DNA from: Escherichia phage phiWec179
Sequence record: LC739533.1
Strand: one strand, 5' to 3'
Length of the DNA stretch: 64,000 nt
Numbering within the stretch: the stretch's first letter is position 1; the number at the start of each line of letters is the position of its first letter. A model generated the notes under the pieces. It did no database searches, was not told where the DNA came from, and saw nothing but the letters and a program-made list of their open reading frames with translations. The position numbers were made by a program, and so were the translations under genes. This document shows, one piece after another, positions 47,513 to 63,444 of the stretch.

Positions 47513-47870
47513 GATAATCTCCTCTCTTGGTTTCATGACAAACATCCTAATTCTCAACGAGGAACATCTTACGATCAATCCTCGGCAATTACAATTCATT
47601 TATCATCGCTTTTCCCTATCAATTATTCTATATATACCTGTTATTTTTGACACCCCCTTTGGTCAAATATTAATCGGCAAAATATCTGGGGGTACTCTAT
47701 AAAATGATGCCCCCTGTTCCTGCAATTTATCGAGGAGAATATCATTCGACTATCATCGGCAAAGAGACAGAAAAGCCTTTGGTAGCAAGGATTTATGGCG
47801 AGTACGTCAGGACTGCTTAACGCGAATTTTTCGGCCCCTCCACTTCTGCGAGCCGGAATCCTCAAATATC

Positions 47871-47902
47871 AATGAGAATAATTATCATTATCATTCGTAT
47901 TC
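47871..47902. repeat. Fur-box-like ATTATC hexamer repeat; left copy of about 31-bp imperfect direct repeat
   Basis: aatgagaataattatcattatcattcgtattc; 28/32 identical to 62407-62438; core matches 19-bp Fur-box consensus as recalled at about 16/19. Confidence 0.5.
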
Positions 47903-48289
47903 AATAACTTAGGCGATCTTTTCCCCTGCTATAAGGTCGGGCCTAACTTAACCATCACTTTTCAAACAATCCTTTATCAATCAACTACTTAACAACCTAA
48001 ACATATGATTACTACGGTGTAAAGGTGCCGCCCATAACAGACTACCTATAAAATAGATGAGAATGATTATTATTCAGACAATTCTTACAACAAATCGACC
48101 AACAAATCAAGAATTTTCTTATTTTTATTCACGTTTAAGAGAACGTGCTCAACATTCCGCTACGCGTAACGGTTCGCCCCCAAAAGATTAGCCTTTGCTT
48201 TCCTGTATATTTATACACTATGTGCAAGGTGTCGCTACACGCTCGCCTTGCCCCGCATAATCCTTCACTGTGCTAATGATTTCATAGTG

Positions 48290-48445
48290 CAACAATAACA
48301 CTTATTATTATATTACGCTTAATTATTCTTACATACAATGCTAATAATAAGCCAGCGTAATTAGTGTAAGCGTAATACGCTTGCAATAATTGCAAGCTAC
48401 ATAATCACAAGAAATAACCATCACCGATGGTTATGATTGTGGGGG
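48290..48445. repeat. cluster of perfect palindromes in ORF-free region
   Basis: aagcgtaatacgctt and cttgcaataattgcaag adjacent; ataaccatcaccgatggttat; later atgataatggttatcat at about 48791. Confidence 0.5.
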
Positions 48446-48539
48446 TGTAGTTGGCTTATTATTAGCTCGCTACGTGTCCGGCGTAGCGTGCTAATGATGA
48501 CTCTATGAATGATTCATTTTGCAATTATTACAGTCTTCA

Positions 48540-48770
48540 CTATTTCGGCAATAGTTATTATTTTAATGGTTTCATTTGTTATCGTTAGTTAGTTGGTTGT
48601 TTTGTCGTGTTATCGTTATCTTGCTTAGTATTCATCATGGTTTGATTGTTTGTCGTTATCAATCATCTTTCTATTATTCCTTTGATTATGATTAGTTTGC
48701 TTATTGTTTTAAGTCGTTAGTTGGTTAGTTGTTGCGAACTGTTATCAACATTATAGTTATGCACTTATAT
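48540..48770. repeat. AT-rich iteron region (GTTATCGTT / TTAGTTGGTT repeats), candidate origin
   Basis: Repeated gttatcgtt, ttagttggtt, TTATCAACA (DnaA-box-like, one mismatch to TTATCCACA); no ORF of 60 aa or more in any frame across 47.6-49.05 kb. Confidence 0.4.
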
Positions 48771-49011
48771 TGCATAGATACGCAAGGGTAGATGATAATG
48801 GTTATCATTGCACTGGAAAGGAAGAAAACAGCCTTTTTCGGTTGTTTGTTGTTGGTTGTTGATCGATTTTAACCGCTCTAAATAGCTCTCTAATAGCCTG
48901 TTGCCCTGGGGTGTATGGTTATTCGTTTAATGGTTGATTAGCTCGATACCGCGATCTATTCAGTTTTGTTCTGTGTCGGTTTTTCATAGGCGGAATCTAT
49001 CAACATTGTTC

Positions 49012-49042
49012 GGGCAAAAAGAAAGGGCGCTTTGTGCGCCCT
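49012..49042 (-). terminator. rho-independent terminator closing the leftward small-gene array
   Basis: AGGGCGC-tttgt-GCGCCCT hairpin with T-tract on minus strand, just downstream of ORF 49057..49476. Confidence 0.5.
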
Positions 49043-49056
49043 TGTTTTGTTGTCAA

Positions 49057-60124: not shown

Positions 60125-60170
60125 TGCCGCCTGATGAGTTAACTATAAGGGATCACGTTTTACCTGTCAA
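60115..60170 (-). promoter_or_regulatory. promoter-leader cassette
   Basis: gtgagcggcaccattgccgcc with TTGACA on minus strand at about 60170. Confidence 0.45.
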
Positions 60171-60724
60171 CCTAAATCATCAAAATAAAGATAATTTTTT
60201 TCGGCTTCTTTCTTCTCTTCCTGTGATGCCTCAAAGACTGGGAGAAAGTGATCAAAGGCGACGCACTCAACCGCTTGATCGTCTTCCTCTTCCTGGTCTT
60301 CCTCCTGGGCTATGGCTGCAATTTTGGCTAATTTCCTTTCAGCCTGGATCAGCTTACCATCTAAAACGCTTTTAGCGGTGCTGTACGCCGTCCAAGTGAT
60401 GCGCTTACTTTCCAGCGCGGCATCAAGCGCCGCTATCTTGCTGGGGTATTCATCCAGGACACGAAAAGCCGGATCTACCTTGTACAGCGGATTATCTTTC
60501 GCGCCGTCGCTATCATCTGCGGCGCTTGCAATGTCAGCGTTACCATTCGCCAGCCAACCAGGGCGATCGCTGCGTGTTTTGGTATTCCCATGACTACGCG
60601 CCGATCTGTTGCCTACTTGCTCGCCACTATAGCCAGGAGCATGATCGATCATGTCGTCCGGTATAATGCGCGGATCATTAACGTCATGTTTTACCCAGGA
60701 CTGGATCACATATTCGCGCCCCAT
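60167..60724 (-). CDS. hypothetical protein
   Basis: 185 aa, largest protein in the array; RBS aaagggg. Confidence 0.6.
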   Translation of the reverse strand: MGREYVIQSWVKHDVNDPRIIPDDMIDHAPGYSGEQVGNRSARSHGNTKTRSDRPGWLANGNADIASAADDSDGAKDNPLYKVDPAFRVLDEYPSKIAALDAALESKRITWTAYSTAKSVLDGKLIQAERKLAKIAAIAQEEDQEEEDDQAVECVAFDHFLPVFEASQEEKKEAEKNYLYFDDLG

Positions 60725-61267: not shown

Positions 61268-61357
61268 GATGATAATCTCTCTTAGTTGTGAGCGGTGGAC
61301 CATTCCGCCGCTCTACGTGATACATCTTATCAGGTTGTTGCCTGTTGTCAATACTTT

Positions 61358-61555
61358 TTATTCAAGCCCTACGATATGTAAGACACGGCGATTAGCAATA
61401 GCGTGCTGGTCTTCTGTTATAACGCCCATTTCTACCAGTGAATCAAGAAAGGAAAGCACCGTGATATATTCGTCATCGGGTACACTCATTTCATTAGTAC
61501 CGTTTACCACTACGTTGATTTGTCCTGCTTTCGCTACAATGTGCAATGTTGCCAT
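61358..61555 (-). CDS. hypothetical protein
   Basis: 65-aa ORF, first gene of the array. Confidence 0.5.
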   Translation of the reverse strand: MATLHIVAKAGQINVVVNGTNEMSVPDDEYITVLSFLDSLVEMGVITEDQHAIANRRVLHIVGLE

Positions 61556-61829
61556 GATCTTAACTCCAGGTGATGAATGATGTTTTTTGTTGGTTGACGG
61601 TGGATTATGGAGATCCTCACCTTTGCCCGTCCTGCATTGCGCCCTCCTGTTGTTTATTGTCGTTGTGCCTCGCCCCCCTCGACAAGATTAATACTACGCT
61701 ACCAGGTGCGGAACGTCAACGACTTTTTCAATCTTTTTTATTTTCTTTTTGCTTGCTATATATAAAGGAAAGGGCTATCATCTTTCTACCGCGCCAACCA
61801 GGGCGCACAACAGAAGAAAGGGCGACACC

Positions 61830-62096
61830 ATGACAACTACTACATTACACCTTATGCACTCGTTAGGCTGGCAAGGCGGCACGGTCCACCAGGTAGCAAG
61901 CGCAACGGGCTTAAAGGTTGAAACAGTTCTCAACCTGGGCGATCATAAAGTGGAAGAGATAGACCATTTTGATCCGTTCGCTGATGGTTATCTCTGGGCT
62001 TGCAGTGGCGGCGGGGAAAGCAAGATACCGCCAGCCGCGCGGGGCGATATGCATTTTTGGTTAGGTGTTCTCTCCTGGCAAGAAAACAAAAAATAA
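61830..62096 (+). CDS. hypothetical protein (isolated rightward gene)
   Basis: Start at ATG 61830; leader has GCGCC-aaccag-GGCGC hairpin followed by ACAACAGAAGAAAGGG, mirroring the minus-strand cassettes. Confidence 0.5.
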   Translation: MTTTTLHLMHSLGWQGGTVHQVASATGLKVETVLNLGDHKVEEIDHFDPFADGYLWACSGGGESKIPPAARGDMHFWLGVLSWQENKK

Positions 62097-62098
62097 TC

Positions 62099-62133
62099 TT
62101 GACAAGCCCAGGGATCGGGCTTATACTGTTTTA
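62099..62133 (+). promoter_or_regulatory. orphan sigma70-type promoter TTGACA-17-TATACT
   Basis: Consensus -35 at 62099-62104, 17-nt spacer holding an AGCCC/GGGCT inverted repeat, -10 TATACT; no downstream ORF of 60 aa or more. Confidence 0.5.
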
Positions 62134-62140
62134 CATACAG

Positions 62141-62240
62141 AAGAGGAAGCGCCACCCCACGGCGTAAAGGCGGGGCTAACATACCAGGGGCACTGGTTGG
62201 AAGGTCGATCGCCGGGAGGCTGGGCGCTATATATTTGTAA
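62141..62240 (+). ncRNA. candidate small structured RNA downstream of orphan promoter
   Basis: GC-rich, self-complementary stretches after the promoter; no credible ORF; ends uncertain. Confidence 0.25.
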
Positions 62241-62351
62241 AGAAATGTAAAGATAAAATAATCGCTTGCTTTCCTGGCTGGATCTGTTATTCTTATTACA
62301 TGGCGAGGGGACACGGGAGCGCGAGACAATCACCGGACCTGCCCGTCATTC

Positions 62352-62378
62352 TGCAAATGAGAAAAATTCTCATTTGCA
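62352..62378. promoter_or_regulatory. perfect 27-bp palindrome, operator-like
   Basis: tgcaaatgagaa aaa ttctcatttgca, 12-bp arms. Confidence 0.5.
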
Positions 62379-62405
62379 AATAAGACTCATTCGCATTTAA
62401 TAATT

Positions 62406-62438
62406 GAATGAGAATCATTCTCATTCTCATTCGTATTT
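62406..62438. promoter_or_regulatory. perfect 21-bp palindrome plus right copy of about 31-bp direct repeat
   Basis: gaatgagaat c attctcattc (62406-62426); 62407-62438 is 28/32 identical to 47871-47902. Confidence 0.5.
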
Positions 62439-62448
62439 CGATTTTAAG

Positions 62449-62463
62449 TGAGAATAATTCTCA
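62449..62463. promoter_or_regulatory. perfect 15-bp palindrome, operator-like
   Basis: tgagaat a attctca; third site sharing the TGAGAA(T) half-site. Confidence 0.45.
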
Positions 62464-62477
62464 TTTCGGTAATTTTC

Positions 62478-62540
62478 ACGTAAACTTTAGAATTTGCTTT
62501 TCAACTTTCACTTTTGTAAAAGCAAAAAAACTTTAAATAC
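62478..62540. repeat. direct repeat copy 1 (about 62 bp)
   Basis: acgtaaactttagaattt..tcacttttgtaaa..aaactttaaata. Confidence 0.5.
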
Positions 62541-62616
62541 CTGGTGCGCGCGACTTTTTAAAAAATTTTTCTCGGTTTTTTGCTTTGAAATCTGGCCCAC
62601 CAATTTGAGATAGTGT

Positions 62617-62680
62617 ACGTAAACTTTAGAATTTGGTTTTGGATTCTCACTTTTGTAAACTCGTAAAAAGTTTAAATAAT
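62617..62680. repeat. direct repeat copy 2 (about 62 bp)
   Basis: acgtaaactttagaattt..tcacttttgtaaa..aaagtttaaata; identical 18-nt and 13-nt blocks with copy 1. Confidence 0.5.
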
Positions 62681-62808
62681 TGTAGGGATTTTGAGATAGT
62701 TTGCTTGTAAGGTTTGAGATAATCCTTCCCGAAGATGTTACGCAGCCTACAGCCTACCTGAATGCTCGTCTAACGAGATTAACTCTAAAAGATGAGTGTT
62801 GGTGTAGC

Positions 62809-62845
62809 TAAAGAGAAAAGGCTCTCTACGGTGTTGTAGGAGCCT
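62809..62845 (-). terminator. rho-independent terminator for NADAR gene
   Basis: GGCTCCTAC/GTAGAGAGCC hairpin (one bulge) with T-rich tract on minus strand. Confidence 0.5.
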
Positions 62846-62916
62846 TATTTCTGTGGCACAAAGTTGACGTATTCTTTTTAAAAACGAATTTTTTCAAAAT
62901 ATCACGAATATCGCCT

Positions 62917-63444
62917 TTATGGTATTTTGGCTGGGAACAGGATTTTAATCAGATTGTTGTGGTATTGTCCTAAAAGATTCTGCCCTTTCCAGTTGGCAGG
63001 ATTAAGCACCCCTGGTTCGTACATACCCATTCCAATTCCGTAAACCTTATCATAAGGACTCGCCTCAACGAACGTTTTGAATTGGTACAGTCGCAAGTCA
63101 GAATAAAGATCAGGGTTCTGTGTATACTTCAAGCATAAGCCTCGCATTACGATACGCTCTCGGTACTCTTCCCACATGTCATTATTAAAACCAGACACCG
63201 CTCGACCCATGCGCTTGTAGTATGCCTGTCCCTTCTCGTCGTCACGCTTCATTGAGTGATCAAGGATAGCTGCTGCGATTACCTGATCCTTGAACAGCAA
63301 AGCCTTACGCCACATCATGTATTGCTCTACACAACAGAAAGTTTCATTGTACCCTGGTTCCGTCTCTGTGAATGGTGCAATGTACCAATTGCTAAACACA
63401 TCTTTATGTGAAAAGAAGAATACATATTCATTAGTTATTCGCAT
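62917..63444 (-). CDS. NADAR-family (YbiA-like) protein, candidate ADP-ribosyl hydrolase
   Basis: FFFSHKDVFSNWY, CVEQYMMWRKALLF, KYTQNPDL, VEASPYDKVYGIGMG, KGQNLLGQ follow NADAR/DUF1768 blocks; RBS aagagg. Confidence 0.7.
   Translation of the reverse strand: MRITNEYVFFFSHKDVFSNWYIAPFTETEPGYNETFCCVEQYMMWRKALLFKDQVIAAAILDHSMKRDDEKGQAYYKRMGRAVSGFNNDMWEEYRERIVMRGLCLKYTQNPDLYSDLRLYQFKTFVEASPYDKVYGIGMGMYEPGVLNPANWKGQNLLGQYHNNLIKILFPAKIP

Follow-up and report, generated by a model that had tools for sequence, protein, structure and literature searches.

Putative host Fur operators in a conserved non-coding module of Escherichia phage phiWec179 and related virulent phages

What purpose is served by 0.8 kb of DNA, in a virulent phage, that appears to encode no protein? 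In the 64,000-nt stretch of the Escherichia phage phiWec179 genome analysed here (LC739533.1; hereafter the window), such a locus occupies positions 62097-62916, between the 3′ ends of a small rightward gene and of a leftward gene for a NADAR-domain protein. The window is that of a Phapecoctavirus (Stephanstirmvirinae), a virulent phage of E. coli. An earlier note, made from the sequence alone, described in this locus three perfect palindromes, an 'orphan' promoter and a pair of direct repeats, and suggested a regulatory RNA, a packaging or replication site, or a decoy for a host regulator. We propose, at roughly even chances, that the locus is a conserved non-coding transcription unit that would be transcribed by the host's sigma-70 RNA polymerase and gated by the host iron sensor Fur, a reading drawn from sequence comparison. 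Beyond the earlier note, we found a putative second promoter, two conserved GC-rich elements and a match of the palindromes to Fur-type boxes, and the direct repeats of about 62 bp turned out to be a conserved architectural feature.

Results

A non-coding module conserved across two phage subfamilies

A sensitive BLAST search with positions 62097-62916 listed 403 matching phage records. The entire region aligns within Phapecoctavirus, at ~78% identity. The first ~300 nt retain 70-90% identity in Justusliebigvirus (phi92), in the Vequintavirinae (CR3, phiTE, 4MG, KB57, Mydo and, in part, rV5) and in myophages of Klebsiella, Serratia, Proteus, Pectobacterium and Erwinia, while the downstream tract diverges fast between genera. 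The matched stretch is almost always unannotated in these records, and the loci that we fetched share a layout, in which a gap of ~0.8-1 kb lies within a block of minus-strand genes and is often preceded by a small plus-strand open reading frame (ORF). Aligning 12 sequences, and then 37 distinct ones from GenBank, IMG/VR and metagenomes, we found a constant order of elements: the small plus-strand ORF, a promoter (P1), a GC-rich element (RNA1), an element with two TGTAAAGA units, a second putative promoter (P2), a stem-loop element (RNA2), one to five palindromes, two or three tandem repeats of ~63 bp in an AT-rich tract, and a terminator. This module is conserved across Stephanstirmvirinae and Vequintavirinae.

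Scans of metagenomes and IMG/VR with the RNA1 core returned 30 loci, every one of them in these same groups of phages, and E. coli chromosomes showed no homology to the locus. Among the plasmids and satellites searched, the module was absent apart from one match, in a 137.5-kb E. coli record (CP057073.1). That record, labelled a 'plasmid', matches like an rV5-type phage genome.

The locus does not encode a protein. As the earlier note had stated, no substantial ORF follows P1: the plus-strand ORFs downstream of it are only 36-44 amino acids long and unconserved. We ruled out coding capacity on these grounds and because insertions and deletions among homologues are not multiples of three. A scan for tRNA and tmRNA likewise found no gene. 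Several records nevertheless annotate up to seven 'hypothetical proteins' across the non-coding locus. One such annotation, phAPEC8_00257, is a minus-strand ORF (window 61988-62329) that overlaps P1, RNA1 and P2. It finds no match in PHROG and was probably called as a gene in error; the annotation should be corrected.

The palindromes match Fur-type operators

We now turn to the palindromes, which the earlier note had read as operator-like sites for a dimeric regulator. All three are present where it placed them, and their number exceeds chance: 1000 dinucleotide-preserving shuffles of the 820-bp region contained a mean of 0.34 perfect palindromes (arms >=7), and 0.2% of the shuffles reached the observed count. 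Their cores are TGAGAAAaATTCTCA, TGAGAATcATTCTCA and TGAGAATaATTCTCA. The 7-1-7 operator of the Fur family is TGATAATnATTATCA, to which the core of the 19-bp Fur box of E. coli, GATAATGATAATCATTATC, is equivalent, and the palindromes match this operator closely. Box A (62352-62378) is a 27-bp perfect palindrome with arms of 12 and a loop of 3, whose core, TGAGAAAAATTCTCA at 62358-62372, scores 11/14. Box B (62406-62439) contains a 21-bp perfect palindrome at 62406-62426 (arms 10, loop 1), with a core at 62409-62423 that scores 12/14, and is extended by ATTCTC and ATTCGT hexamers to give GAGAAT-c-ATTCTC-ATTCTC-ATTCGT at 62410-62435; such an array of adjacent hexamers is the arrangement expected for the binding of several dimers or for Fur spreading. 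Box C (62446-62466) holds a 15-bp perfect palindrome at 62449-62463 (arms 7, loop 1) and also scores 12/14. Between boxes A and B lies a degenerate fourth box, AAATAAGACTCATTCGCATTT (62378-62398; repeat family D2), which is 76% identical to box A and scores 9/14 when counted by eye.

As a positive control, we applied this count to the ent/fep cluster of E. coli K-12 (25 kb) and obtained four hits, three of which scored 11-13. These three are the Fur-regulated intergenic regions fepA-fes, fepD-entS and fepB-entC. The phage boxes, at 11-14/14, therefore score within or above the 11-13 of these E. coli operators. The upper end of the phage range comes from relatives, whose homologous first box scores 12-14/14, with a perfect TGATAATGATTATCA in 4MG. 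Relatives carry one to five boxes in the same place, often spaced by 29 bp (as in Certrevirus), and in all homologues the first box begins ~55 nt after the predicted start of the P2 transcript. Across the whole window, the degenerate pattern TGAKAATNATTMTCA occurs at 10 sites with <=2 mismatches, against 1.5 expected, and none of 100 shuffles reached 10; seven of the ten sites fall within the window's two large non-coding gaps.

Which protein would read these boxes? When E. coli Fur, a query validated by its 99% match to a Salmonella fragment, was used in a tblastn search, none of the Stephanstirmvirinae, Vequintavirinae or T5-like genomes yielded a homologue. The boxes are therefore most simply explained by a reader from the host, with Fur as the obvious candidate. 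We consequently describe the palindromes as Fur-type 7-1-7 boxes and putative host Fur operators; the dimeric regulator of the earlier note gains support, and its suggestion of a host regulator appears to have been on target.

Two putative sigma-70 promoters precede the boxes

P1 (plus strand, 62099-62127) consists of TTGACA (62099-62104), a 17-nt spacer and TATACT (62122-62127). It matches the consensus at 11 of 12 positions and is the best site in 61300-63100, in agreement with the near-consensus promoter of the earlier note. Both hexamers are conserved in the 37 distinct homologues while the spacer varies, and conserved non-coding sequence follows, so that the non-coding transcript toward the operators envisaged in that note is plausible. 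The spacer itself contains a GC hairpin followed by a T-rich run (62104-62122, plus strand), and relatives have a different GC hairpin in the same place. Because a scan calls this hairpin terminator-like, it may end the transcript of the upstream ORF.

P2 (plus strand, ~62266-62293) has the weak sequence TTGCTT-16-TATTCT, which in relatives becomes TTGCAA-17-TATATT. The positions of its hexamers are conserved and its GC-rich spacer is variable, and on the strength of the conserved positions we infer that it is a promoter. The hexamers of P1 and P2 lie at conserved positions, 17 and 16 bp apart respectively in phiWec179, within the 16-18 bp expected of sigma-70 promoters. Upstream of P2 lies TTTGTAAAGAAATGTAAAGAT (62234-62254, plus strand), in which two TGTAAAGA units are 11 bp apart. 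This element is nearly invariant in all relatives, although the Stephanstirmvirinae of E. coli have a 10-11-bp insertion, about one helical turn, between it and the P2 -35 hexamer; it would be a protein site or an UP-like element. Only Mydovirus and Seunavirus carry a strong third promoter with an extended -10 (TTGACT-17-TGaGATACT; at about 1760-1810 of the loci fetched) directly after two Fur boxes, and box C occupies the window position that aligns with this extended -10. Our literature searches found no transcriptome for any member of the phage group, Vequintavirinae included.

Conserved GC-rich elements downstream of the two putative promoters

RNA1 (62134-62232, plus strand) follows P1, contains 62% GC and has a mean column identity of 84% across subfamilies. 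Its homologues are 138-144 nt long, and because their lengths differ by 1-6 nt, not by multiples of three, RNA1 encodes no protein. Applying RNAalifold to 22 RNA1 sequences yielded 16 pairs, including a hairpin of CGCC with GGCG around the loop ACCCCA and a second domain closed by GGCGG and UCGCC, whose inner hairpin loop varies from 5 to 11 nt. A single pair covaries perfectly (AU in 12 sequences, GC in 10, broken in none), and the other pairs are invariant. When compared with shuffled sequences, the window's copy folds with a minimum free energy z-score of -2.95. An RNA1 covariance model found one copy in the window, at 104 bits, and no copy in rV5, T5-like loci, the phi92 ends or the E. coli ent region.

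RNA2 (62298-62349, plus strand) would form a GC-rich stem-loop at the 5′ end of the P2 transcript, with the invariant apical motif GAGACAAWCACC and a mean column identity of 75-79% across subfamilies. Every homologue, when folded alone, adopts the same outer helix, inner helix and apical loop. The outer helix pairs the transcript's first bases with the bases just before the first palindrome, and the sequence of the inner helix differs among homologues. Across 23 sequences, the outer helix is paired in 87.5% of cells, compared to at most 59% when the partners are slid. For the inner helix, we dropped a claim of covariation because the alignments are ambiguous. A G-U pair is formed by 16 of the 23 sequences at a position of RNA2 and by all 22 at a position of RNA1, which favours a plus-strand RNA, if the helices are real. 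In rV5 (rV5_ev146, 1365-1620), RNA1 is absent and the locus consists of two tandem units, each with a promoter, a GGGAGACAAnCACCGGG motif (also given as GAGACAAnCACCGGG) and a Fur-type box, which ties the RNA2 motif and the palindrome together as one unit.

An Rfam scan, which the earlier note had proposed as a check, matched no family to RNA1 or RNA2 (Rfam 15, permissive thresholds, with 3-kb and 361-nt queries). The best matches (E = 0.2-7) were to unrelated families, fell on the AT-rich palindromes and were at chance level. Terminator-like calls on the plus strand were limited to the P1-spacer hairpin and one Fur-box hairpin. Taken together, the predicted folds make an RNA structure of RNA1 and RNA2 plausible.

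The boxes lead into an AT-rich, repeat-bearing tract

The most AT-rich 300 bp of the window, with 29.0% GC against 41.9% overall, extends from 62395 to 62694. Two direct repeats lie in this region, at 62478-62539 and 62617-62678 (plus strand); each is 62 nt long and they are 84% identical, in keeping with the imperfect repeats of about 62 bp in the earlier note. The second copy overlaps a promoter-like TTGAGA-16-TAGAAT at 62605-62632. All relatives examined have two or three tandem direct repeats in the same place, with units of 62-66 bp. Their sequences differ by group but keep a short palindromic core, which is TACGTA in phiWec179 and phi92 and the GATC-rich TCGATCGA in Vequintavirinae. Three TTTGAGATA motifs (plus strand, at 62604, 62690 and 62713) lie within 118 bp (62604-62721). 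They are the only exact copies in the 64-kb window, where 1.14 would be expected, and the motif also occurs in the tracts of 4MG and KB57. The tract is followed by the hairpin terminator of the NADAR operon (62807-62857, minus strand; the I8 inverted repeat), which is annotated as a terminator in phAPEC8 and ASO2A and probably also stops plus-strand transcripts. An AT-rich region with repeated elements next to promoters is what one would look for in a replication origin, while no DnaA-box cluster was found near the locus.

Fur-type boxes recur at the genome ends and in T5-like phages

Positions 47600-49056 form another non-coding gap, ~1.45 kb long and free of conserved ORFs, with Fur-type boxes at 47873, 48058 and 48793; of the AT-rich stretches of the window, those ranked second and third are located here. 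Many records of relatives start or stop within this gap, and the 343-bp direct terminal repeat annotated in phi92 aligns to window positions 47814-48140. The physical genome ends lie here, as far as these sequence comparisons indicate, and the locus at 62097-62916 is consequently not an end junction. It sits 13-14 kb inside the end in the window and ~11 kb inside it in phi92 and phAPEC8. The phi92 terminal repeat itself contains two boxes that reach 14/14 and 13/14; their sequences are TGATAATCATTATCA (position 79) and TGATAATTATTCTCA (position 274). A promoter-like TTGACA-17-TAGACT was seen by eye between them.

T5-like phages match the query in the palindrome zone only. In Salmonella phage Stitch, the array is identical to window positions 62407-62440 at 32 of 34 bases, counted by eye, and is located in the left terminal repeat between a DnaA-box cluster and GTGCAAATCCGAC repeats. 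The arrays of Stitch (1000-1260) and misterkot (1095-1267) both occupy the untranslated part of the left terminal repeat, just after the DnaA boxes of the injection-stop region, and misterkot has six consecutive boxes, several of them 35 bp apart. By position, this array corresponds to Repeat Region 3 in Davison's analysis of T5 injection stop (bioRxiv 10.1101/866236), which describes DRC repeats, the palindromes palE-palJ and 66-bp DRE repeats in that region and makes no mention of Fur or iron. The same box type in unrelated phages points to a protein that their hosts have in common and not to one that the phages share, and suggests that several unrelated phages use the host iron sensor.

Genomic setting of the locus

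Over positions 61700-63000 the window shares 100% identity with Escherichia phage phiWec181 and 84% with phAPEC8. The minus strand carries the genes from ~28 kb to 64 kb, and the locus sits within that block. Directly upstream of the module, the plus-strand ORF at 61830-62096 (88 amino acids) is the sole plus-strand gene in the block. This ORF is a real conserved protein gene, for which no match to a DNA-binding fold was recognised. The minus-strand gene at 62917-63444, whose 3′ end borders the locus on the right, encodes a NADAR-domain protein (Pfam E = 1e-33), as the earlier note had stated. In some subfamilies the boxes are retained while unrelated proteins take the place of the 61830-62096 protein.

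Farther to the left lies a divergent promoter pair at 61691-61781, with TTGACG-17-TAGTAT (minus strand, 61719-61691) facing the leftward gene block and TTGCTA-17-TATCAT (plus strand, 61753-61781) facing the small ORF. The GC content peaks at 50-55.5% (window 42%) at 60300-60700, inside a minus-strand ORF (60167-60724, 185 amino acids) whose product has many acidic and alanine residues; this gene may have been acquired recently. The host labels look doubtful for Pseudomonas phage PsgM04F (96.7% identity), Acinetobacter phage ABPW7 and Campylobacter phage B15, since the records of all three are nearly the same in sequence as coliphages of this genus.

Discussion

A proposed Fur-gated non-coding transcription unit

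By what mechanism could these elements work together? According to the reading that we favour, the tandem promoters P1 and P2 would fire rightward, opposing the flow of the flanking genes, and each would produce a transcript that begins with a GC-rich structured leader, RNA1 or RNA2. Iron-loaded Fur dimers would bind the array at 62352-62463, immediately after RNA2, and spread along its adjacent hexamers. Bound Fur would then limit read-through into the AT-rich tract of repeats and TTTGAGATA motifs (62478-62721), where transcripts that pass would be ended by the probably bidirectional terminator at 62807-62857. Fur bound to multiplying phage DNA would, at the same time, be withdrawn from the host's pool.

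Several observations weigh against this proposal. The boxes are located downstream of P1 and P2 and none covers a -35 or -10 hexamer, which is not the arrangement of classical Fur repression. Most of them have G where the consensus has T (TGAGAAT, not TGATAAT), so that another protein with a similar preference could be the reader. P2 matches the consensus at just 7 of 12 positions in phiWec179 and was not called by the consensus scan. Covariation is thin, with one clean pair in RNA1; in the RNA2 outer helix it is not significant, as 29 of 500 column shuffles reach the observed pairing and just a single pair shows changes on both sides. Neither RNA1 nor RNA2 is followed by an intrinsic terminator, and the conserved GC-rich blocks could be sites that act at the DNA level. 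Finally, these phages grow well in iron-replete media, and Fur is therefore no absolute block on an essential function.

Alternative and additional functions

A Fur-gated unit leaves room for several functions, and three of those considered here, namely a replication origin, a trans-acting RNA and a sink for Fur, are not mutually exclusive. An origin activated by transcription is the leading candidate for the function of the tract, tentative as it is, and could operate downstream of Fur gating. Transcripts would open the duplex or prime synthesis in the tract for a T7-like replisome, and a phage initiator would bind the ~63-bp repeats. It leads because of the T7-like replisome, the short terminal repeats, the tandem promoters that point into the window's most AT-rich 300 bp, and the conserved repeats with palindromic cores, present in two or three copies in every relative. 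The primary origin of T7 has two tandem promoters and an AT-rich region, ~15% from one end; here the locus lies 7-9% of the genome from one end, relatives have short terminal repeats (343 bp in phi92), and the GC skew reverses locally. The rV5 genome paper reports a PolA polymerase and a gp4-like helicase-primase for rV5-type phages, and in PLE, a satellite of phage ICP1, repeat-bearing non-coding regions are origins (PMC7145576). However, no gene for an initiator was identified, a DNA-binding fold could not be recognised in the small protein next to the module, and there is no DnaA-box cluster. Units of 63 bp far exceed the length of typical iterons, the tract diverges quickly between genera, and the module is absent from the plasmids and satellites searched. 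The authors of the rV5 paper, moreover, found that skew changes track the direction of transcription only.

Somewhat less probable, at perhaps one chance in a few, is a locus for trans-acting RNAs. RNA1 and RNA2 would act through their loops (ACCCCA and GAGACAAWCACC) on host or phage mRNAs or proteins, and Fur would tune the amount of RNA or its 3′ extension. No other segments of the locus are as conserved as these two (84% and 75-79% column identity), their homologues fold consistently with invariant apical loops and one loop of variable length, and RNA1 folds better than its shuffles (z = -2.95). Yet rV5 lacks RNA1 entirely, no terminator defines a 3′ end, covariation is weak and no Rfam family matches. 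Near-matches to the RNA2 loop are also not in excess in the window on either strand, with 10 at <=2 mismatches against 9.8 expected.

The boxes could instead serve mainly as a sink or decoy that takes up Fur while the phage DNA is copied, which would de-repress host iron uptake and other Fur-repressed functions to the advantage of the phage, or displace H-NS from its AT-rich DNA. We consider this an unlikely main purpose: Fur is abundant, at thousands of molecules per cell, and a pure decoy needs no fixed register to P2 and the RNA2 stem-loop. Still, each genome has 7-11 boxes in two non-coding loci, relatives and T5-like phages have regular arrays at 29 or 35 bp, and the boxes lie within the window's most AT-rich DNA. 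The Fur titration assay makes use of the de-repression of the Fur regulon by multicopy Fur boxes, and at ftnA Fur is an antagonist of H-NS silencing.

Two further explanations are less likely than these three. The boxes may resemble those of Fur and yet be operators for a regulator encoded by the phage; this would account for the G or C at position 4 throughout (TGAGAAT, TGCGAAT), where the consensus has T, and for the small conserved protein gene directly upstream. We give this little credence: these phages have no Fur homologue, the upstream protein is swapped for unrelated ones where the boxes stay and matches no DNA-binding fold, the same boxes occur in unrelated T5-like phages, and 4MG and the phi92 terminal repeat carry the perfect Fur consensus. 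A genome terminus, packaging site or assembly junction, which the earlier note had entertained and which a large, non-coding, repeat-rich region can suggest, as termini are often of this kind, is very improbable, since the locus has an internal position in each of the 403 listed matches, the records of relatives begin or end within 47600-49056, and the direct terminal repeat maps to that other gap, at ~47.8-48.15 kb, 13-14 kb away.

Implications

If arrays of host Fur boxes are indeed common to the control regions of unrelated virulent phages, these phages would use DNA-bound Fur as a landmark or resource, which could gate non-coding transcription or origin firing, or pause or anchor incoming DNA. 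H-NS could also be displaced from the most AT-rich phage DNA, and the Fur pool drained to reprogramme the host's iron metabolism. Binding of Fur would make the programme of widely used groups of therapeutic coliphages (rV5-like, phAPEC8-like, phi92-like and T5-like) depend on cellular iron status and would provide a candidate protein for the palindromes of the T5 injection-stop region, whose role has been unexplained since the 1980s. For two subfamilies in which no origin and no regulatory RNA is known, it would also define either a candidate origin or an RNA module new to phages.

Comparison with known systems

Our literature searches found no Fur boxes in the control regions of lytic phages, no such RNA elements and no function for the locus, and searches on the non-coding regions of phi92 and phAPEC8 returned nothing relevant. 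The rV5 genome paper marks only a 'non-coding' box, and its skew analysis revealed no origin. That virulent enterobacterial phages of unrelated groups share arrays of host Fur boxes in their untranslated control regions, a feature so far overlooked, and that RNA1 and RNA2 form a new coupled RNA class, is a conjecture that we hold as possible though doubtful.

The nearest parallels are the enterobacterial Fur operators themselves. The operators of fepA-fes and fepB-entC and the arrays of the aerobactin promoter have the same 7-1-7 core, the same extension by ATTNTC hexamers and multiple adjacent sites, and by the same count the phage boxes score equal to or better than genuine E. coli operators. 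Unlike these operators, the phage boxes lie in the non-coding DNA of virulent phages, from about +55 onward, have G at core position 4 and control no iron-related gene.

Untranslated Repeat Region 3 of T5 has a near-identical array (32/34 with Stitch) in a long, repeat-rich non-coding region with DRE repeats of ~66 bp. Our mapping of the Fur-like array onto the T5 DRC and pal elements is by position only. The T5 array, in contrast to the phiWec179 locus, is located inside a 10-kb terminal repeat beside eight DnaA boxes and has no homologue of RNA1 or RNA2. For the T5 palindromes, a role as restriction-like cleavage sites has been suggested (bioRxiv 10.1101/866236).

With the primary origin of T7, the locus shares tandem promoters that lead into the most AT-rich DNA, a T7-type polymerase and helicase-primase, short terminal repeats and a position near one end. 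The promoters of phiWec179 are, however, of the host sigma-70 type rather than for a phage polymerase, and conserved leaders, Fur boxes and 63-bp repeats intervene; in phiWec179 the origin is a candidate one.

Fur-regulated elements in phages have a precedent in the stx1 promoter. The sitABCD operon of lambdoid prophages is likewise regulated by Fur (PMC6969025). Both place a host Fur box on a phage genome, but as single boxes at the promoters of cargo genes in temperate phages, whereas the phiWec179 type consists of arrays in the control regions and terminal repeats of virulent phages. The components described here are thus of known kinds, Fur boxes and sigma-70 promoters being textbook elements, while their arrangement and distribution appear to be new.

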